The notes under the pieces are model-generated. The model had not been told where the DNA came from, did no database searches, and saw nothing but the letters and a program-made list of their open reading frames with translations. The position numbers and the translations under genes were made by a program. 64,000 nucleotides of DNA from Burkholderiaceae bacterium (GTDB lineage: Bacteria; Pseudomonadota; Gammaproteobacteria; Burkholderiales; Burkholderiaceae_F), in the NCBI GenBank assembly GCA_034522655.1, contig JAXHLD010000032.1, positions 10,530 to 74,529 on the forward strand, read 5' to 3'. Shown piece after piece: positions 1,292 to 58,011 of this stretch; position 1 is the first letter of the stretch, and each line of letters opens with the position of its first letter.

Positions 1292-1632
1292 GCCGAGCGG
1301 AAGATGAAATACACCGCACCCACCAGGCACAGCGCAGCCCACAGGTAGTCGAGCTTGAGCGGTTCGCGCATGTAGAGCACCGCGAACGGCACGAACACCG
1401 ACAGCGTGATCACTTCCTGCAGGATCTTCAGCTGCCCGAGCGAGTATGTGGTGTAGCCGATGCGGTTGGCCGGCACCTGCAGCAGGTACTCGAACAGCGC
1501 GATGCCCCATGAGACGAACGCGGCGATCCACCACGGCTTGCTCTGCAGGTCGCGCAGGTGCGCGTAATGGGTCAAGGTCATGAAGATGTTGGAGGCGACC
1601 AGCAGCAGCGTGGTCTGGGCAAGGATCGGCAT
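1288..1632 (-). CDS. small DMT-superfamily membrane protein (DUF486-like)
   Basis: A 114-aa ORF with four hydrophobic segments (MPILAQTTLLLVASNIFMT...LVGAVYFIF). It is coupled to the downstream kinase by an ATGA overlap. Confidence 0.7.
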   Translation of the reverse strand: MPILAQTTLLLVASNIFMTLTHYAHLRDLQSKPWWIAAFVSWGIALFEYLLQVPANRIGYTTYSLGQLKILQEVITLSVFVPFAVLYMREPLKLDYLWAALCLVGAVYFIFRSA

Positions 1633-1687
1633 GGCCAGGAAACGCGGAAGGCGGGATCAGGGCCGGTCCGGCGCACGCAGCGCGCGC

Positions 1688-2191
1688 TCAGCCGGTCGGG
1701 GTGTCGAGGCGCTCGATGCGCTGGTCGGTCACCGCATCGAGAAAGCGGTCGAGCCGGCCCAGCGCGGGCGCCTTCAGTTCCGGGTCGAGATCGAGCAGCG
1801 GCCGCAGCACGAACGCGCGCTGGTGCAGCCGCGGGTGCGGCAGCGTCAGCGGCGTGCTGCGCAGGATCAGGCTGCCCACCAGCAGCAGGTCGAGGTCGGC
1901 CTTGCGCGAGACATTGCGCTTCTCGCCGCCCAGGCGGCGCTTGCGACCGAGCATCAGCTCGATGTCCTGCAGGTGCAGTAGCAGGCCATAGGGTTCGAGC
2001 TCGGTGTCCAGGCTCGCCACGGCGTTGACGAAGTCGGGGCCATCGCAGTCGATCGGCGCGCTGCGGTAGAAGGGCGAGACGCCGACCAGCTCGCAGCGCT
2101 CGACCGATTTCAAGGCATCGAGCGCGGCGTGCAGGGTCTCCTCGGGTTCACCCAGATTGGCCCCCAGCCCGATGTAGGCGCGGCGCATCAT
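1688..2191 (-). CDS. folK: 2-amino-4-hydroxy-6-hydroxymethyldihydropteridine diphosphokinase
   Basis: C-terminal 167 aa of ORF 1688..3451: MMRRAYIGLGANLGEPEETL...SPFYRSAPI...DLDLLL...LTLPHPRLHQRAFVLRPLLDL, which matches the FolK signature. The ATG at 2191 overlaps the pcnB stop. Confidence 0.9.
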   Translation of the reverse strand: MMRRAYIGLGANLGEPEETLHAALDALKSVERCELVGVSPFYRSAPIDCDGPDFVNAVASLDTELEPYGLLLHLQDIELMLGRKRRLGGEKRNVSRKADLDLLLVGSLILRSTPLTLPHPRLHQRAFVLRPLLDLDPELKAPALGRLDRFLDAVTDQRIERLDTPTG

Positions 2192-3585
2192 GCGGCGTCT
2201 CCGTGCGGTGTCGACGCGCGCTCGCCGGCGTCGCCGCCGCCGTCGTTGGCGCCGCCCTTGCCGCCGCCCCGGCGGCGTCGCCGCCGGCGCGGACCGGCGG
2301 CCGCTTCGCTGCGCCCGAGGCCGGCGACCAGTTGTTCGCGCGTGTCGGCGTCGGCATGCATGAAGTTCGTCCACCATTCGCCGAGCTCGGCCGGCGCTTC
2401 GTCCGCCGCGCAGCGCAGCAGCAGGAAGTCGTAGCCGGCGCGCAGGCGCAGGTGCTCGACCAGCTTGAAGGCGTTGCGGCCGGTACGGCGCTCCAGCCGC
2501 GGCTGCAGCATCCAGATCTCGCGCATGTCGGAGGTATAGCGGCGCTGGATGGCGAGCTTCTCGGTCTGCAGGTCGAGCACGTCGTCGATCGCCGCATCCA
2601 GCGCGGGGATGCGATGCTCGCCGCGCGCCTCGCGCTCCTTGTAGCGCTTGAGCACCTCGTGCCAGAGCAGGGTGGCGAACAGGAAGCCCGGCGCGATGTG
2701 CTTGCCGGCGCGTACCCGCTCGTCGGTGCGCGACAGCGCCAGCATGACGAAGCGCTCGCCCTCCGGCTGCTCGAGGATCACGTCGAGGAACGGCAGCACG
2801 CCGTGGTGCAGGCCCTCGGCGCGCAGGCGCGTGATGCAGGCCACCGAGTGACCGCTCATCAAGAGCTTGAGCATCTCGTCGAAGACGCGTGCGGCCGGCA
2901 CGTTCTCCAGCAGGGCCGCCATCTCGCGGATCGGCACGCGCGTGGCTTCGTCGATCTCGAAGCCCAGCTTGGCGGCAAAGCGCACCGCGCGCAGCATGCG
3001 CACCGGGTCCTCGCGGTAGCGGGTGGCGGGATCGCCGATCATGCGCAGCCGCTTGCGCCGGATGTCTTTCACGCCGTCGTGGTAGTCGAGCACCGTCTGC
3101 GTGACCGGGTCGTAGTACAGCGCGTTGATCGTGAAGTCGCGCCGCGCCGCGTCCTCGTGCTGCGGGCCATAGAGGTTGTCGGACAGCACGCGGCCGTGCT
3201 CGTCGGTCTGGCGGTCCGGGTTCTCCAGCGCGCGGTAGGTGGAGACCTCGATCGTCTCCTGCCCGAACATCACGTGCACCAGGCGGAAGCGGCGGCCGAT
3301 GATGATCGCGCGCCGGGAGTGCGACTTCACCTGTTCGGGCGTGGCGTCGGTGGCGACGTCGAAGTCCTTCGGCGCCACGCCCAGCAGCAGGTCGCGCACC
3401 GCGCCGCCGACGATGAACGCCTGGTGGCCGGCCTTCTGCAGCGTCTCGCACACGCGCTGTGCATTGCGCGGCACCAGGGCCGGGTTGATCCCGTGCTCGG
3501 CCGCCGCCAGCCGCTTGGGCTCCTTGCGCAGCCGCGGCTTGCGCGTGAAGAGCGTCTGAACTTTCTCGACGAATCGCTTGATCAT
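2188..3585 (-). CDS. pcnB: poly(A) polymerase I
   Basis: ORF 2188..3786, with the start taken at MIKRFVEK (ATG 3585). Motifs GGAVRDLLLG, DFDVAT, RRDFTINALYYD and RAVRFAAKLGF are present, plus a basic Arg/Gly-rich tail. Confidence 0.9.
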   Translation of the reverse strand: MIKRFVEKVQTLFTRKPRLRKEPKRLAAAEHGINPALVPRNAQRVCETLQKAGHQAFIVGGAVRDLLLGVAPKDFDVATDATPEQVKSHSRRAIIIGRRFRLVHVMFGQETIEVSTYRALENPDRQTDEHGRVLSDNLYGPQHEDAARRDFTINALYYDPVTQTVLDYHDGVKDIRRKRLRMIGDPATRYREDPVRMLRAVRFAAKLGFEIDEATRVPIREMAALLENVPAARVFDEMLKLLMSGHSVACITRLRAEGLHHGVLPFLDVILEQPEGERFVMLALSRTDERVRAGKHIAPGFLFATLLWHEVLKRYKEREARGEHRIPALDAAIDDVLDLQTEKLAIQRRYTSDMREIWMLQPRLERRTGRNAFKLVEHLRLRAGYDFLLLRCAADEAPAELGEWWTNFMHADADTREQLVAGLGRSEAAAGPRRRRRRRGGGKGGANDGGGDAGERASTPHGDAA

Positions 3586-3611
3586 CTTTCGACCATGATC
3601 AAGCCGCCGGT

Positions 3612-3683
3612 GTCGTCCCCGCGGAAGCGGGGACCCAGCGCATGTGGGAGTGCTGCTGGATTCCCGCTTGCGCGGGAATGACA
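3612..3683. repeat. pair of REP-like palindromic units in inverted orientation (BIME-like)
   Basis: Unit 1 (3612-3638) is gtcgtCCCCGCggaaGCGGGGacccag. The reverse complement of unit 2 (3656-3683) is tgtcatTCCCGCgcaaGCGGGAatccag. Each unit forms a 7-8 bp hairpin. The pair lies in the pcnB/HAD spacer. Confidence 0.75.
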
Positions 3684-3709
3684 CATCGCTGGCAAAGCCC
3701 GCGCGCTCG

Positions 3710-4399
3710 TCATGCCGCCGCCACCAGGTCGAACAGTTCCATCGTCTGCCAGCCCCGCTCCGCGGCAATGGATTTGAGCTTCGCATCGCCGTTGGTCACG
3801 ATCGGGCGCTTGACGCGTTCGAGCAGCGGCAGGTCGTTGATCGAGTCGCTGAAGAACACGCTGTCCTCGAGCTTGTCGAGCGTGGTGCCGTGCTGCGCGA
3901 GGAAGGCCTCGGTCGCGCGCACCTTGCCTTCCTGGTAGGTGTGCGGCGGCAGGTAGCGGCCGGTGAAGCGGCCGTCCTTCTCCTCCGGCTGCACGGCGAT
4001 CAGGTGCTCGACGCCGAACAGGGCGGCGATTGGGCGCGTGATGAAGCTGTGGGTGCCGGTGACGATGGCCACCGTGAAGCCGTCGCTGCGGTGCTTTTCC
4101 ACCAGCGTCTGCGACTCGAAGCGCATCTGCGGGAAAACCTGAGCGCGCAGGAAGGCGGCGCGCCACAATTCGAGCTGGTCGCGCGGGAAGCGCGCCAGCA
4201 GGCCCATCTGGAACGACAGATAGCCCTCGACGTCAAAGCGGCCGGCCCGGTAGTCGGCGCCGAAGCGGCGGATCTCGTCGCCGTAGTGCGCAGCGTCGAG
4301 GCCGGCGGCCTGGACCACGAAATGCGACCAGCCATCGGCGCTGTCGATCGGCAACAGCGTGTGGTCGAGGTCGAACAGGGCGAGGTGCGTGATTGTCAT
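3710..4399 (-). CDS. HAD-IB family hydrolase (phosphoserine phosphatase-like)
   Basis: ORF 3710..4450 has the DLDHTLL motif I, IVTGT, and GKV...FFSDSINDLPLL. The start was chosen at MTITH (ATG 4399), which is preceded by GGAGAC. Confidence 0.8.
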   Translation of the reverse strand: MTITHLALFDLDHTLLPIDSADGWSHFVVQAAGLDAAHYGDEIRRFGADYRAGRFDVEGYLSFQMGLLARFPRDQLELWRAAFLRAQVFPQMRFESQTLVEKHRSDGFTVAIVTGTHSFITRPIAALFGVEHLIAVQPEEKDGRFTGRYLPPHTYQEGKVRATEAFLAQHGTTLDKLEDSVFFSDSINDLPLLERVKRPIVTNGDAKLKSIAAERGWQTMELFDLVAAA

Positions 4400-28222: not shown

Positions 28223-29930
28223 TCAGCCGAACAGGTTCTCGTCAGTGATCGCGCCCTTGCTCGCGGTCGACACCAGCTTCGCGTACTTCGCGAGCACCCC
28301 GCGCGTGTAGCGCGGCGTCGGCTGCTTCCACGCTGCGCGGCGCCGCGCAGCGAGCTCCGCCTCGGCGACGTTCAGCTGGATCAGGAGCTGGTGCGCGTCG
28401 ATGGTGATCGAGTCGCCTTCCTTGACCAGCGCGATCGTGCCGCCCTCGTAGGCCTCCGGCGCCACGTGGCCGACGACCATGCCCCAGGTGCCGCCCGAGA
28501 AGCGCCCGTCGGTGATCAGGCCCACGGATTCGCCCAGCCCCTTGCCGATGAGCGCCGAGGTGGGCGCGAGCATCTCGCGCATGCCGGGGCCGCCCTTCGG
28601 GCCCTCGTAGCGCAGCACGACCACGTCGCCCGCCTTGATGCGGTCGGCGAGGATCGCGTCCATGAGGTCGGGCTCGGAGTCGAACACGCGCGCCGGGCCG
28701 GTGATGACCGGGTTCTTGAGGCCGGTGATCTTGGCCACGCAGCCCTCGGGCGCGAGGTTGCCCTTGAGGATCGCGAGGTGCCCCTGCGCGTACATCGGGT
28801 TCGACCACGGGCGGATCACGTCCTGGTCCTTGCGCGGCTCGGCCGGGATGTCCGCGAGCACCTCCGCGATCGTCTGGCCGGTGATGGTCATGCAGTCGCC
28901 GTGCAGCAGGCCGTGCTCGAGCAGCATCTTCAGCACCTGCGGCACGCCGCCGGCGCGGTGGAAGTCGGTGGCGACGTAGCGCCCGACGGCTTCAGGTCGC
29001 ACAGCACCGGCACCTTGCGGCGCACGCGCTCGAAGTCGTCGATGGTCCACTCGACCTCGGCGGCGTGGGCGATGGCGAGGAAGTGCAGCACCGCGTTGGT
29101 GGAGCCGCCCACCGCCATGATGACGCTGACCGCGTTCTCGATCGACTTGCGGGTGATGATGTCGCGCGTCTTCAGGCCCCGCTTCACCGCCGCCACCAGC
29201 ACGCGCGCGCTCTCCTCGGCGCTCGCGACCTTCTCCGCGTCCTCGTTGGCCATGGTCGAGGAGTCCGAGCAGGCTCATGCCCAGCGCCTCGAAGGCGGAG
29301 CTCATCGTGTTGGCGGTGTACATGCCGCCGCAGGCGCCGGTGCCGGGCAGGGCGCAGCGCTCGATGCAATCGAAGTCCTCGCGGCTCATCTTGCCGGCGG
29401 TGAACGCGCCCACCGCCTCGAACGCCGAGACGATGGTGCAGGTCCTGGCCCTTGTAGTGGCCGGGCTTGACGGTGCCGCCGTAGACATAGATCGCCGGCA
29501 CGTTCATGCGCGCGATCGCCATCATGCCGCCGGGCATGTTCTTGTCGCAGCCGCCGATGACGAGCACGCCGTCCATGCACTGGCTCTGACGGCGGTCTCG
29601 ATGGAGTCGGCGATCACCTCGCGCGAGACCAGCGAGTACTTCATGCCCTCGGTGCCCATGCAGATGCCGTCGGTGACGGTCGGCACGCCGAACACCTGCG
29701 GCATGCGCGCCGGCTTCGCGAGCGCCGCCATCGGCGGCATCGGCCAGCGGCTGGATGCCGGCGTTGCAGGGGTTCATGGTCGAGTGGCCGTTGGCCACGC
29801 CGACGATCGGCTTGTCGAAATCGCCGTCCTTGAAGCCGATGGCGCGCAGCATCGCGCGGTTGGGCGAGCGCGCCACGCCCTGGGTGATGGCTGTGGAGCG
29901 GATTGTTGGTTATGGCGTGTCGTTCTCGGA
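28223..29930 (-). pseudogene. ilvD: dihydroxy-acid dehydratase, multiply frameshifted as assembled; start codon not identifiable
   Basis: Near-perfect IlvD blocks are spread over three frames: [113 protein letters not shown]...GGSTNAVLH, and [11 protein letters not shown]...[20 protein letters not shown] count at least five frame switches. Confidence 0.88.
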
Positions 29931-29979
29931 TGCTGCGTGGTGCCTCCCGATCGACTCCCGATTCTAGTCGCGAGCCTCC

Positions 29980-30797
29980 ATGACCCCTGACGTGCTGGTC
30001 CATCCGCAGTTCGATCCGATCGCGCTTTCCCTCGGCCCGGTGGCCGTGCGCTGGTACGGCCTGATGTATCTGCGTCGCCTTCGTCGCCTGTTCGTGATTC
30101 TGGGCGGGTAGCGCGCGCGCGAGGCCTCGGCACCGGCATGAACAAGCAGGACGTCGACGACCTGCTGTTCTACGGCGTGCTCGGCGTGATCCTCGGCGGG
30201 CGGCTCGGCTACGTGCTGTTCTACAAGCCCGGCTACTACCTCGCGCACCCGCTCGAGGCGCTGATGCTGTGGAAGGGTGGCATGGCCTCGCACGGCGGCA
30301 TCGTCGGCGTGATCGCCGTGATGTGGTTGTGGTCGCGCGCGCGCGCCAAGCTGCGCTGGCTCGACGACTGACCGACTTCGTGGTGCCGCTGGTGCCGCTC
30401 GGGCTTGCAGCAGGCCGCATCGGCAACTTCATCAACGGCGAGCTGCTGGGGCCGCGCGCCATCCGACCTGTGCCTGGGGCGATGGTGTTCCCGCAGGCGC
30501 GATCGCGGCGTCCCGCGCCATCCGTCGCAGCTGTATCAATTCGCGCTCGAAGGCGTGCTGCTGTTCGTGATCCTCTGGCTCTACTCGCGCAAGCAGCGCA
30601 CGCCGGGGCAGGTGGGCTGCATGTTCCTGATCGGCTACGGCGTGCTGCGTTTCATCGCGGAGTTCGCGCGCGAGCCCGATACCTTCCTCGGCCTGCTGGC
30701 TTTCCAGCTCAGCATGGGCCAGTGGCTGTCGCTGCCGATGATCCTGGCCGGGGTCGGACTGATGGCCTGGTTCAGCCGCGTCCCGCGCGCGCCCTGA
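29980..30797 (+). pseudogene. lgt: prolipoprotein diacylglyceryl transferase, multiply frameshifted as assembled
   Basis: [31 protein letters not shown], then [30 protein letters not shown]...GGMASHGG, then [28 protein letters not shown], then [18 protein letters not shown]...[10 protein letters not shown]. These sit in alternating frames, with at least five switches. Confidence 0.88.
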
Positions 30798-31064
30798 GCG
30801 GCGCACGCACGCCGCCGGGGGCGTGGTTCGGCCGCAACGCGGCTGGTGATTCGTCGGGCAAGGGCTAGCGCCAGTCCTACGGACTGATGGTGAACTATCT
30901 GTACGATCCGGCGCGTCTAAACCGTAATCGCGTGCAACTCTTGCGCGGGCGCCCCGCGGTCGGGTCGAGCCGCGCACGCGCCGCGCCGGCGTGCCGGTTG
31001 GTCCGACGCCAGTTCGTCGCAGTTCAGACCACAAGCCCGAACGGGCGTACACAAGGAGATAACG

Positions 31065-44029: not shown

Positions 44030-45475
44030 TTCAAGGCACTATACGCACGTCTTCGTCCCTTTCTGGTGAGCAACGATGGGTGCGAGCGATCGGTTTGAGC
44101 GGTATATGGAGCATTTGGCGGGGGGGCTGGGCATATGATCGGCACGCCGGGTTGAAGGGCTACTGCACCGGGTTGATGCTCCCCCTGTCGCGCAAGAGTG
44201 TGGAGCCCATGGCCGCGCGAGTCGATCCGATGCATGCGAGTGCCAAGCACCAGGCGCTGCACCACTTCGTGGCCAAGGCGCAGTGGTCTGACACCCAGAT
44301 GTTGCGCCGCGTGTGCCAGTGGGTGATGCCCAAGATGGACTTCAGCCAGGGCGGCTGGTGGATCATCGACGACACCGGTTTCCCGAAGAAGGGCCGCCAT
44401 TCAGTCGGTGTCACGCGCCAGTACTGCGGGATGCTCGGCAAGCAGGACAACTGCCAGGTGGCGGTCAGCATCTCGCTGAGCTGCAATCAGCAGGCCAGCC
44501 TGCCCGTGGCCTGTCAGTTGCACCCGCCCGAAGGAGTGGGCTGCGATCGCTGAGCGGCGGAGCAAGGCCGGCGTGCCGAAGGTGCACTTGCCACGAAGTA
44601 CCGAGATCGGCTGGAGCAGCTGGCACGCCTGTGATGGCGGCCGATGCGTGTTGGCCATGCCGGCTACGGCGTGGACAACGCCTTTCGCCAGTCGCTCAGC
44701 GACATGGGCTTGCTCTATGCGGTGGGTGTCACTTCGTCCGTCGTAGTCTGGCCGCCTGGGGTCCGGCCGCTGCCACCCAAGCGCTACAGCGGCATGGGTC
44801 GTCCTCCCGTGGTGCCTCGGCGCACGAGCACTCTGCAGCCCATGAGCGTCAAAGCACTGGCGATGTCGTTGCCGCCAGAAGCATTCCAGACGATCACTTG
44901 GCGCGAGGGCACCAACACGCCGCTGCGCGAGCGCTTCGCGGCTGTTCGGGTGCGTCATGCTGGAGGTAATGTCGGCAAAGCACGCCTGCATCCCGAGCAA
45001 TGGCTGCTTATCGAGTGGCCGGCAAGCGACGCCCAGCCGAGCAAGTACTTCTTGTCCACCCTGCCGGAGGACACGCCGATCAACGAACTGGTCAGCGTCG
45101 CCCATCAGCGCTGGCGCATCGAGCGCGACTACCAGGATCTGAAGCAGGACTTCGGCCTGGGCCACTACGAGGGCCGAGGTTGGCGGGGGTTCCACCACCA
45201 TGCCGCCTTGAGCATCGCGGCCTACGGGTTCCTGATGGCAGAACGCCTCGTCGCCGACAAGCCTGCCGGCGGCAAAAAAAACTTCATCGAACGCCAAGGT
45301 GCCTGCCCTTCCCGAGGATTACATCCCCCGCGGCAGTCCTGCGCGCGCAGCGCCACGTGGGGACGTCGATCACGACGCTGCGCCATCGGCTGAGCTACCA
45401 CTGATCTTCCGCCGCGGTCGATGTCCACGTTGCGCGGACAAAGCGCAAGGCGACGTTCGTGACACAGTAAGATTA
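44030..45475 (+). mobile_element. IS701-family insertion sequence, degenerate (ends approximate)
   Basis: It encloses the transposase pseudogene. Weak terminal inverted repeats are ACTATACGCACGTCTTCGTCC (left, ~44048) versus the reverse complement of ~45447-45468, ACTGTGTCACGAACGTCGCC. It sits between pilU and a low-GC segment. Confidence 0.7.
44076..45470 (+). pseudogene. IS701-family DDE transposase, frameshifted several times
   Basis: Pieces in three frames: MGASDRFERYMEHLAGGLG; DRHAGLKGYCTGLMLPLSRKSVEPMAARV...WWIIDDTGFPKKGRHSVGVTRQYCGMLGKQDNCQVAVS; VLADAGYGVDNAFRQ...; HQRWRIERDYQDLKQDFGLGHYEGRGWRGFHHH; and the C-terminus ...FVTQ stop at 45468-45470. Confidence 0.85.
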
Positions 45476-54680: not shown

Positions 54681-57600
54681 TTGAATTTGCTGGAGGCCTC
54701 AATCGCACCGCAGCTGGCCGCCGTCACCCTGCCCAACCAGTCGGCGCTGATCCTGGCCGGTGCGGGTTCCGGCAAGACGCGCGTGCTGACCACGCGCATC
54801 GCCTGGCTGATCCAGACCGGGCAGGTGAGCCCGCAGGGCATTCTCGCCGTCACCTTCACCAACAAGGCGGCGAAGGAAATGCTGACGCGGCTGACTGCGA
54901 TGCTGCCGATCAACACGCGCGGCATGTGGATCGGCACCTTCCACGGCCTGTGCAACCGCATGCTGCGCGCGCATCACCGCGACGCCAGTCTGCCGCAGAC
55001 CTTCCAGATTCTCGACACCAGCGATCAGCTGTCGGCCGTAGAGCGGCTGCTGAAAGCCAACGGCGTCGACGACGAAGTTCCCGCCGCGCGAACCTGACAG
55101 TGGTTCATCAACGCGCAGAAGGAAGCCGGCCTGCGTGCCGGCGCCGTGGAGGTCATAGACGACTTCGGACCGAAAAAGGCGCGTCGAGCTGTACGCCGCC
55201 GTACGAGGAGCGATGCCAGCGCGAGGGCGTGGTCGACTTCCCTGAACTGCTGCTGCGCTGCTACGAGCTGCTGGTGCGCAACGAACCGCTGCGCGCGCAT
55301 TACAACGCGCGTTTCCGCCACGTGCTGGTCGACGAATTCCAGGACACCAACGTGCTGCAGTACAAGTGGCTGAAGCTCTTGGCGGGCCGGCTCGACGGGG
55401 CGGCGGCAACGGAGGCCGGCAGCGGCGCCATCTTCGCCGTGGGCGACGACGACCAGTGCCTGCTGGCCGGCACCAAGGTCACGATGGCCGATGGTCGCTT
55501 CAAGCTGATCGAGGACGTGCGGGTCGACGACCTGGTGTGTTCGGCGGTGGGCGGCGGCCGCATCGGTGCGGCGCGTGTCACCAAGGTGTTCGAGCGGCAG
55601 GAGCGCGTGCCGCTGGTCACCGTGCACACGCAGAAGGGCAAGTCGCTCACCAGCACGCTCGAGCACGTGCACTTTGCCGGCTATACGGTCGGCCATCTGC
55701 CGGCCAAGTACTTCCTGCACCTGATGAACAAGCCGGGCGTGGGCTATCGGCTCGCGGTCAGCGGTCACCGCAGCGCGCGCAGTGACGGCAAGACCGTGCC
55801 TGGCTTCCGCCAACGCGCGCGCCAGGAGGGCGGCGAGCACTGCTGGGTGATCGACGCCTTCGACGATGAAGTCGAGGCGCGCGAGCGGATGAACGTGCTG
55901 TCGCTCAGTGACGGCCTGCCACGCGCAAGTTGATCTGCGGTGACGAAGAAAGCCCGCCGCTACCGGCCGAGTTTTCCGAGGTCAACACCGAGCGCGCGGC
56001 GGAATGGCTGCTGAAGGACCTGAACCTCGCCTTCGACCACCCGGCGGAGCGGCGCCGCCCGACCTTCGGCACCCCGGGCGACGTGCTGGTGAGCCTGTGC
56101 AGCGATTCGCGCCGCGGCAAGCCGGACCATCGCGTCTACGCGCGCATCGCGACCGAGACTGCGATGCAGAAGGCGGTGGCGGCCGGGTTCGTTGCCCACC
56201 CGCAGACCACCGGCAGCGGCGGCTGGTATGTCCAGTTTTGGCGGCGCGACTTCGGCGAGGCGCTGAACGAGGCCAACCGGCTGCGCAACGTGCTCAACGG
56301 CCGCGTGCTGCAGCGGGCGCGCCTGGGCCGTGGCTATCTGCCGATGGTGCCGGCGCAGTACGTGAGGCCGGGCATGGCGATCTTCGAGGAGACTGGCGAC
56401 TTCGACATCGTGACCCAGCTCGAGACGCACGCGCCGGCGCTGGTCACGGTGTACGACCTCAATATCGAGGGCAGCCACAACTTCGCTGCCAACGGACTGC
56501 TGACGCACAACTCGATCTACGCCTTCCGCGGTGCCAATGTCGGCAACATGGCCGACTTCGAGCGCGAGTTCCGGGTGCGCAACGTCATCAAGCTCGAGCA
56601 GAACTACCGCTCGCACGGCCATATCCTGGATGCTGCCAATGCGCTCATCCGCCACAACGCCAAGCGCCTCGGCAAGGAACTGTGGACGCAGGCGGGCGAG
56701 GGTGAGAAGGTGCGCGTGTTCGAGGCCGGCAGCGACGGCCTGGAGGCTGCCTGGCTGGTGGACGAGGTGCGCAACCTGATCGCCGAAGGCCACGCGCGCA
56801 GCGAGATCGCGGTGCTGTATCGGTCGAATGCGCAGTCGCGCGTGATCGAGCACGCGCTGTTCAACGCCGGCGTGCCGTATCGCGTCTACGGAGGACTGCG
56901 TTTCTTCGAGCGCGCCGAGATCAAGCACGCGCTCGCCTATCTGCGGCTGGTGGAAAACCCGGCCGACGATACGGCGTTCATGCGGGTGGTCAACTTCCCG
57001 CCGCGCGGCATCGGGGCGCGCACGCTGGAGCAGCTGGCCGACGCCGCTCGCAGCGGCAACCTGAGCCTGTATGCCGCGGTCGGACAACTGGCCGGCGCAC
57101 CGGGCGCCAAGCTCGCTGCGTTCGTCAAGCTGGTCGACAGCCTGCGCTTCGAGGCGCAGCCGCTGACGCTGAAGGAGATCGTCCAGCTCACCATCGAGCG
57201 CAGCGGCTTGGTCGAGCACTACCGCGGCGAGAAGGAAGGCGGCGAGCGGATCGAGAACGTGGAAGAGCTGGTCAATGCGGCCAGCGCCTTTGTGTCGGAA
57301 GAGGGGTATGCGCAGGATGCGCCGGGTGCGCGTGCTGATGCGGCCGAAGCGGCCGCGGCGATCGCCTCCCCGCTGGCCGGTTTCCTGTCGCACGCCTCGC
57401 TCGAGGCCGGCGATAACCAGGCCGAGGCCGGACAGGACGCGCTGCAACTGATGACGGTGCACGCGGCCAAGGGCCTGGAGTTCCACGCGGTGTTCATCAC
57501 CGGGCTGGAAGAAGGCCTGTTCCCGCACGAAAATAGTGCGCAGGAGCTGGACGGGCTGGAAGAAGAGCGGCGCCTGATGTACGTCGCCATCACGCGTGCG

Positions 57601-58011
57601 CGCAAGCGGCTTTACGTGTCGTTTGCGCAAACGCGGATGCTGCACGGACAGACCCGTTATGGCATCCGCAGCCGCTTCCTGGAAGAGATCCCGGACGGCG
57701 TGATCAAGTGGCTGACGCCGCGGCTGCGCGAAGGTCAAGGCGCGGGTGGCGGCTGGAGCGGTGCGCGCTTCGGACAATGGCAGGACCGGACCGCCGAGGC
57801 CGCCAATGGCGCGGGCACGCCGCCGCGCATGGCTCTGGCGCAGACGCTGCACGGCTTTCGCGTCGGGCAAAGCGTTCGCCACGCCAAGTTCGGCGATGGC
57901 GTGATCGTCAAGCTCGAGGGCAACGGCGCCGATGCACGCGCAAAGATCAACTTCGGGCCGCACGGCCTGAAGGAACTGGCGCTGGCGATCGCAAAGCTCG
58001 AAGCGGCCTAG
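54681..58011 (+). CDS. uvrD: intein-containing DNA helicase II UvrD (as assembled, interrupted near 55071-55205 and inside the intein)
   Basis: TTG start. [20 protein letters not shown] (motif I), [19 protein letters not shown] (II), AVGDDDQ|intein|SIYAFRGA (III), [28 protein letters not shown] and YVAITRA. Confidence 0.9.
55457..56511 (+). other. intein (Hint domain) inserted in UvrD motif III
   Basis: Cys1 lies within [27 protein letters not shown] (block A). [15 protein letters not shown] is block B (TxxH). [21 protein letters not shown] forms blocks F/G and ends in HN, followed by Ser+1. The length is 1055 nt, which is not divisible by 3, and the frame changes near 55925-55935. Confidence 0.85.

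Follow-up and report, generated by a model that had tools for sequence, protein, structure and literature searches.

The uvrD locus and its intein

The window analysed here, a 64,000-nucleotide (nt) stretch of contig JAXHLD010000032.1 from a Burkholderiaceae bacterium, contains a uvrD gene on the + strand (54681-58011), with leuS lying upstream and transcribed divergently. Within uvrD, an insert of 1055 nt (55457-56511) interrupts motif III of the superfamily 1 (SF1) helicases, AVGDDDQ^SIYAFRGA (the caret marks the insertion point). Sequence, profile searches and predicted structure identify this insert as a Hint-type class-1 intein. The codons GCC GTG GGC GAC GAC GAC CAG (AVGDDDQ) are followed directly by Cys1 of the intein (TGC, 55457-55459), which continues CTG CTG GCC; at the other end, His-Asn (CAC AAC, preceded by CTG ACG) closes the insert at 56511, and the helicase resumes with TCG ATC TAC GCC TTC CGC GGT GCC (SIYAFRGA), the first codon of which (56512-56514) provides Ser+1. 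Conceptual removal of the insert rebuilds a contiguous motif III.

As assembled, the insert is not divisible by 3, being one base short of 1056 nt, or 352 amino acids (aa). Three-frame translation indicates that the reading frame entering the insert terminates within it at a TGA (55931-55933), and that the exit frame is open from the insert through the uvrD stop at 58011 (open reading frame [ORF] 55930-58011). A preliminary description, made from the letters of this DNA alone, had placed the insert at these coordinates, listed a full set of class-1 splicing residues (Cys1, a TSTLEHVHF block B, His-Asn and Ser+1), and noted both the odd length and a frame ending at 55933; on re-reading the sequence, each of these points proves correct. 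A scan of GTDB species genomes yields three Burkholderiaceae/Burkholderiales metagenome-assembled genomes (MAGs; loci L003, L004 and L005) whose inteins are 80-85% identical to that of the window and whose inserts are in frame at 1050 nt. On its C-extein side, uvrD is 81% identical to a metagenomic protein, P0004. The parts of the locus are listed below, with aa numbers referring to the repaired 352-aa insert and with L001 being a relative's metagenome contig:

54681-55456, + strand: uvrD N-extein, with motifs Q, I, Ia, II and the first half of III, and two broken patches (three-frame translation and alignment to L001 and L003-L005)
55457-56511, + strand: intein, 1055 nt as assembled and 1056 nt (352 aa) with one base restored, with Cys1, T67xxH70, D334 and H351-N352
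55457-55684, + strand: Hint N-terminal lobe, aa 1-76, blocks A and B (AlphaFold pLDDT ~94-98; the family profile aligns residues 1-76 to solved inteins)
55685-55918, + strand: middle lobe 1, aa 77-154 (AlphaFold secondary structure and family motifs)
55919-55933, + strand: frame break at the Pro155 codon (alignment to L003-L005)
55924-55983, + strand: flexible hypervariable linker, aa 157-176 (pLDDT down to <50; 2 aa longer than in L003-L005)
55984-56304, + strand: middle lobe 2, aa 177-283 (AlphaFold secondary structure and family motifs)
56305-56511, + strand: Hint C-terminal lobe, aa 284-352, blocks F and G (profiles and AlphaFold model)
56512-58011, + strand: uvrD C-extein, intact and in the same frame as the C-terminal 580 nt of the intein

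Block B is present in the insert as T67-x-x-H70 within TSTLEHVHF. Together with Cys1, Asp334, His351 and Asn352, these residues are 95-100% conserved among 88 relatives (Cys1, 100%). Searches of the repaired insert with Hint and intein profiles, as the preliminary description had proposed, gave matches that greatly exceed chance: TIGR01443 (intein_Cterm) at 23.9 bits against a cut-off of 15.6, Pfam Intein_splicing (PF14890) at E=1e-8 and 35.6 bits, which is marginally under its gathering score of 35.8, and weak matches to Hint N-terminal models. A profile of the intein family matches solved inteins at both ends of the insert (gp41-1, 6.7e-14; Pho RadA intein, 5.9e-13).

Structure prediction, which had likewise been suggested, gives a Hint fold plus a two-lobed middle. 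The AlphaFold2 model, built from a 30-sequence alignment, has a mean pLDDT of 90.4 and a pTM of 0.88; it replaces an earlier model made from 5 fragmentary relatives, in which pLDDT was 51 and the middle was unmodelled. When the whole model is compared with the PDB by Foldseek, the best E-values are to PI-SceI (5e-8) and PI-PfuI (1.8e-6), with most mini-inteins at ~1e-4; target-normalised TM scores to the mini-inteins are 0.85-0.87 (gp41-1, 0.86).

The frame break and other lesions in the window

At 55920/55921 the Pro155 codon of the window is a base short, reading CTGCC-ACG against CTGCC[G/C]AC[G/C] in L003-L005. In the model, this position falls at the edge of the disordered linker. Each of L003, L004 and L005 has a 350-aa in-frame intein within a uvrD frame that is open across the whole gene, and a noisy contig, L002, also reads through the break point. 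This contig (ENA NODE_10501, coverage 0.6) carries the same leuS-uvrD neighbourhood as the window at 1500-4389, and its many frameshifts fit its low coverage. At 55907-55912 (+), 10 nt upstream of the break, the window has AGTGAC (Ser-Asp, aa 151-152) in place of the AAGTAC (Lys-Tyr) of its clade, Tyr152 being 88% conserved; this difference may represent a compensating -1/+1 pair of errors. Two further patches of damage lie in the N-extein:

55076-55099, + strand: lesion patch 1, with -2, +1 and +1 relative to the relatives, ~8 out-of-frame codons and an in-frame TGA at 55095-55097
55165-55196, + strand: lesion patch 2, in which +4 (55171-55174) and +1 (55195) change the frame twice in a row

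Across patch 1, identity to the best relative is 0.53-0.56, compared with 0.79 among the relatives themselves, and this is the sole such stretch. Damage of the same kind is found in lgt (29850-30800, +), whose coding sequence is scattered across three frames, switching at least four times within ~0.8 kb and containing an in-frame stop at 30369-30371, and whose two Pfam LGT halves lie in separate ORFs. Gram-negative bacteria cannot do without lgt, which encodes prolipoprotein diacylglyceryl transferase. At least 15 other genes of the window give full-length Pfam matches; such checks of completeness were used in place of a GC3 frame-plot, which proved too noisy for detecting frameshifts.

Because the lesions form tight patches and the essential lgt is also damaged, assembly error is the likeliest cause, and we regard it as quite probable that the break in the intein is an error of sequencing or assembly. 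The organism itself probably makes a spliceable precursor. In this case uvrD would be annotated as an intein-containing gene rather than a decayed one, and the frame breaks in uvrD and lgt would be flagged as problems of sequence quality. The preliminary description had offered either an indel error or a dying intein and host gene. The in-frame relatives, the lack of relaxed selection and the damage to lgt favour the first of these over the second.

If uvrD and its intein were instead a genuine, recently inactivated pseudogene, then the deletion, the upstream indels and the stop would all be real. The locus does hold at least five frame-disrupting events and an in-frame TGA, all within 55076-55921, and no exact copy of the protein was found in a collection of 5.8 billion clusters (the best match is 81% identical), which fits either a pseudogene annotation or the absence of this genome from the collection. 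However, the ratio of nonsynonymous to synonymous substitution rates (dN/dS) shows no excess in pairs that include the window (whole intein, 0.17-0.31; C-extein, 0.13-0.22), being as low as among the intact relatives, and the 2.09 kb downstream of 55921 are free of lesions. Furthermore, tight patches that include a frame-restoring -2/+1/+1 are typical of consensus errors and not of independent mutations, and an essential gene, lgt, is damaged alike. A real pseudogene is thus unlikely.

A break that is natural and functional, either as a two-ORF split intein, with a TTG at 55930 overlapping the TGA as TTGA, or as a programmed frameshift, is extremely improbable. The stop does overlap this possible start, the disordered linker would tolerate a split, and the metagenome contigs of two relatives likewise end in the linker. 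However, L002, L003, L004 and L005 read straight through, a slippery heptamer is absent at the site, and the N-terminal ORF is broken three more times upstream; the in-frame relatives and this broken ORF rule out both forms.

Elsewhere in the window, an ORF at 44635-45393 (+) aligns to DDE transposase models over their C-terminal part alone (DDE_5, 185-271 of 272) and is a truncated insertion-sequence remnant.

A motif-III intein family in bacteria and phages

An exhaustive HMMER search of 1.84 billion representatives, using as query a profile of the middle region alone from the window's clade, returns 257 proteins at E<=1e-3 and 76 at E<=1e-10. The middle region of the window aligns to these relatives over its full length at 25-45% identity. 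(A word-indexed protein search had found only four fragmentary close relatives, and the same kind of search with a lobe-1 alignment returned just 2 proteins.) In 89 of the 150 matches listed, a complete intein of 334-379 aa lies at GDxxQ^C...HN^[SC][IVL]Y.[FW].G, and nearly all of the remaining listed matches with readable flanks have the same junctions. The motif-III insertion site is also found in seven GTDB loci; the scan that gave L003-L005 yields four further loci (L006-L009) with inteins at 44% identity, and in every one of L003-L009 the intein lies within a single open uvrD reading frame. The bacterial hosts are UvrD/PcrA helicases of ~1000-1100 aa from metagenomes, including Burkholderiaceae and Armatimonadota MAGs; other hosts are UvrD-like helicases of phages. 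The intein of the window, new and divergent, therefore belongs to a large group of inteins in helicase motif III, a family defined by a two-lobed module of ~210 aa placed right after block B. Hundreds of UvrD-like helicases from bacteria and phages carry this one type of intein at a common position in motif III.

An exception to this pattern is P0108 (1203 aa), in which the intein lies at about residue 535, just after motif II (DETQDTNT^CHPPGT), and the match to lobe 1 is partial. In P0062 (979 aa), an intein of the motif-III type is accompanied by a second one in the P-loop (GAGSGK^C), which has LAGLIDADG-like motifs.

UvrD inteins as such are already on record: a survey lists 16 of them (PMC4760082, Novikova et al.). 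They share the host protein with the window intein and follow the same general rule of insertion into conserved ATPase/helicase motifs. A review mentions P-loop intein sites for helicases (PMC5874633).

Among phages, 40 GenBank records carry the intein, mostly from phi92-like coliphages (genus Justusliebigvirus). In one of these, PaulScherrer (MZ501100.1), gene bas60_0082 is annotated as an 'intein-containing UvrD / Rep family helicase precursor' with mature-peptide features. The phi92-like intein resembles that of the window in its insertion point (GDEFQ^C...SHN^CIYQFRG) and in its order of Hint domain, lobe 1, linker and lobe 2, and it is related to a bacterial member of the family at 27% identity (tblastn E ~1e-28). 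It differs in its phage host and in having Cys as the +1 residue, and its annotation is silent on the middle domain. It also keeps Y88, G100, E145, H197, R207 and R258, which the window clade has lost. Models of viral helicases in BFVD superpose on the whole window intein with query-normalised TM scores (TMq) of 0.56-0.70 and E ~1e-17. The best of these, a protein of 924 aa (TMq 0.70, E=3.5e-17), we take, solely from its matching length, to be the phi92-like helicase. A BFVD protein of 782 aa named 'Adenine specific DNA methyltransferase [Myoviridae sp. ctCuC1]' (A0A8S5TZY8) also gives a whole-intein match (TMq 0.58, E=2.4e-16), and this model may represent the same intein architecture in a differently named host protein.

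Where the helicase genes of phi92-like phages are ~98% identical, 38 records have the intein, and others are without exactly 1038 nt. In phage Paula (L021), which is intein-minus, the empty site reads GTAGTGGTGGGTGACGAATATCAG^AGCATCTACCAGTTCCGTGGA. Its helicase allele and the intein-plus allele of PaulScherrer (intein at L010 2501-3538) are ~97-98% identical, and 25 of their 49 extein differences fall between -27 and +50 nt of the insertion point, with the other 24 spread over the remaining 1659 nt. Divergence is thus 32% near the insertion point versus 1.4% elsewhere. These differences include the +1 residue, where the plus allele has Cys and the minus allele Ser. Such clustering is a classical mark of homing, in which flanking sequence is co-converted and the target site altered, and the presence/absence polymorphism points to current mobility. 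The mobile phage allele retains Y88, R98, G100, R120, E124, E145, H197, R207 and R258. Since the plus and minus alleles differ mainly beside the insertion point, the middle module is probably the homing endonuclease of the family. The coliphage alleles provide a ready experimental system for this question.

The middle module and its possible nuclease fold

In the predicted structure, the Hint domain consists of aa 1-76 and 284-352, and the module between them is composed of lobe 1 (85-152), a linker (157-176) and lobe 2 (178-280). Lobe 1 is modelled as β 85-92, β 96-103, α 116-124, β 128-135 and α 138-152; lobe 2 as α 178-188, β 210-219, β 222-231, α 234-242, β 247-249, β 257-263 and α 266-280. 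Family motifs are F.YLM.K.G.GYR.G.T, GF..R..QE.AD..W and EAR..E...S..YG.PT in lobe 1, and DT...A..LL.D.GL....PHH.P, RRN...TLC.D.R....HR and WR.E in lobe 2. Near-invariant positions (>=93%) are Y88, M90, G96, R98, G100, R120, E124, D127, W130, A141, E145, P155, F159, L185, P196, H197, H225 and R258; R207 is likewise counted among the near-invariant residues of the module.

The middle ~210 aa had been called an unrecognised domain with no visible LAGLIDADG or HNH motif, and this holds: no Pfam, NCBIfam, PHROGs or PDB sequence matches it, whether the query is the window, four canonical members or 60 lobe-1 sequences; neither motif is found; and profile searches against PDB sequences with the whole intein or with lobe 1 return nothing for the middle region. 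No description of the module was found in the literature. It is genuinely unclassified, yet common to a large family. Specifically for the HNH or ββα-metal class, none of the Pfam, NCBIfam and PHROGs models matches, and no His is invariant in lobe 1.

The preliminary description had also suggested, as speculation, a loose resemblance to GIY-YIG nucleases. In the model, the order of elements in lobe 1, ββαβα (aa 85-152), fits that of the GIY-YIG catalytic domain. Y88, R120 and E145, each 99% conserved in the family, lie in strand 1, the first helix and the last helix, and would be equivalent to Y6, R27 and E75 of I-TevI. With GIY-YIG enzymes of the I-TevI type (PF01541), the family would share the ββα(α)βα order, an aromatic residue in strand 1, Y/F/W-R-x-G in strand 2, an Arg in the first helix, which in the family is accompanied by a Glu, and a Glu in the last helix; with I-TevI itself it would share the layout of a catalytic lobe, a flexible linker and a second lobe. 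Unlike these enzymes, the family has neither an I-TevI-like second helix nor the conserved Asn, and the window has neither the Tyr nor the Glu. At the level of sequence, PF01541 does not match the window and matches three of 60 members at E>=0.042 (best, 0.04). Alignment by hhalign to GIY-YIG templates (I-TevI relatives from phage records, E. coli UvrC and YhbQ) gives P=0.65 with four templates and P=0.034, at a probability of 1.5%, with 14; in its register, strands 1-3 and the helix bearing the Glu fall where expected, and scores of the hidden Markov models are only ~0.7 standard deviations above those of shuffled sequences. Thus, the topology and the placement of Tyr, Arg and Glu fit the earlier guess, whereas the sequence support is marginal; the resemblance appears to lie in predicted topology and residue placement, and membership of GIY-YIG is unproven. 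A 2006 survey reported that GIY-YIG domains were not found in inteins (PMC1564403), and a 2025 preprint names GIY-YIG among intein-associated endonucleases with no example given (10.1101/2025.01.02.630785).

It is quite unlikely that the module is a highly degenerate homing endonuclease of the LAGLIDADG type. The inteins with the best Foldseek E-values to the PDB, PI-SceI and PI-PfuI (1DFA and 1DQ3), belong to this type and share with the window intein a Hint splicing domain interrupted by a DNA-targeting module; in addition, the modelled order of lobe 2, αββαββα, is that of the LAGLIDADG-type fold. However, TM scores to these inteins are merely 0.27 with a root-mean-square deviation of >20 Å, and the matches may reflect the Hint part alone. 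PI-SceI and PI-PfuI differ in having the LAGLIDADG motif and in the order of their lobes, the window module following block B directly. Neither a LAGLIDADG motif nor a Pfam LAGLIDADG/Hom_end match is found in the window or in four canonical members, and the helix at 178-188 ends without a conserved acidic residue. Lobe 1 has no equivalent of the first helix of the fold, and it is in lobe 1 that the near-invariant polar residues sit.

Within the clade formed by the window and L003-L005, near-invariant positions of the module are substituted (Y88H, G100A, E145M, H197A, R207P and R258Y), and E127 takes the place of near-invariant D127; the window also has D152 in lobe 1. Retained are R98, R120, E124, W130, H225 and all of the splicing residues. 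Because six near-invariant residues are replaced, the nuclease in this clade is probably inactive and the intein vertically inherited. Pairwise dN/dS is 0.06-0.18 for lobe 1 and 0.10-0.27 for lobe 2, compared with 0.16-0.44 for the Hint lobes and 0.13-0.24 for the C-extein; the linker reaches ~0.8-0.9 in pairs that include the window, and dS is similar in intein (0.38-0.53) and extein (0.57-0.67). By this measure the module is under purifying selection despite its substitutions. Presumably it is kept because the Hint domain needs it to fold or splice, or because DNA binding is retained. The Burkholderiaceae clade thus offers a natural case of a probably inactivated yet conserved module.

This constraint (dN/dS ~0.1) on a module that has lost its putative catalytic residues would also fit a different role, in which the middle is not a nuclease at all but a structural, regulatory or DNA-binding insertion in the Hint domain, serving, for example, splicing conditional on DNA or damage, and in which the family has spread by ordinary recombination. 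No nuclease family is significantly matched, and inteins of repair proteins have been proposed as sensors, as discussed in the Novikova survey (PMC4760082). Nevertheless, such a role sits poorly with the plus/minus polymorphism of near-identical phages, whose substitutions cluster at the insertion point, with near-invariant Tyr, Arg, Arg, Glu and Glu in a ββαβα lobe, and with a single insertion site across very different helicases, as a site-specific endonuclease produces. We judge it improbable.

Taken together, the observations are best read as a class-1 motif-III intein, in a chromosomal uvrD gene, whose middle is a homing endonuclease, dead in the window's clade, and whose frame break is a sequence error; we hold this combination to be fairly likely. 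The precursor would be translated through the intein, and Cys1, T67xxH70, H351-N352 and Ser+1 would drive four-step splicing, rebuilding a contiguous motif III and freeing the 352-aa intein. Catalysis would fall to lobe 1, whose GIY-YIG-like order places Tyr88, Arg98, Arg120, Glu124 and Glu145 in matching elements; the flexible linker would tie it to lobe 2, which is probably DNA-binding. In active members, alleles without the intein would be cleaved by the endonuclease and would receive the intein during the repair that follows.

Several points weigh against this combination. The similarity of lobe 1 to GIY-YIG sequences is not significant, and R120 is not paired with R27 of I-TevI in the hhalign alignment. 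Whole-model Foldseek comparisons with the PDB and BFVD are dominated by the Hint domain and give no fold assignment for the lobes. Precise loss of the intein, or recombination with no dedicated nuclease involved, could also account for the plus/minus pattern of the phages, and no paper describing nuclease activity for any member of the family was found. The reading gives no account of the strong purifying selection on a nuclease presumed dead. Finally, six indel events within 850 nt of one gene are unusual either way.

More specifically, the module may be an as yet unclassified SF1-motif-III homing endonuclease, composed of a GIY-YIG-like lobe, a linker and a DNA-binding lobe, mobile in phages and domesticated in dead form in Burkholderiaceae; this we put forward only tentatively. 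If true, an intein would here clearly incorporate a nuclease of the GIY-YIG type, and this would be a case in which the dead nuclease is still needed by the intein or by UvrD. As an element, the window intein is ordinary in intein biology, and the intein is recognised in some phage annotations; the module is uncharacterised.

An endonuclease ORF that is antisense or out of frame has been described for actinophage inteins (10.1101/2025.01.02.630785). Such an arrangement was set aside for the window, where the sense frame holds a conserved, selected domain; the long antisense ORFs seen here are the usual artefact of high GC content. In relatives, three independent metagenome contigs have an end inside the intein: L001 stops (7440) at YGLPTR and P0001 begins at LNTERAA, both in the linker, and P0004 begins in lobe 2. 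These ends suggest that the region varies between co-occurring strains.

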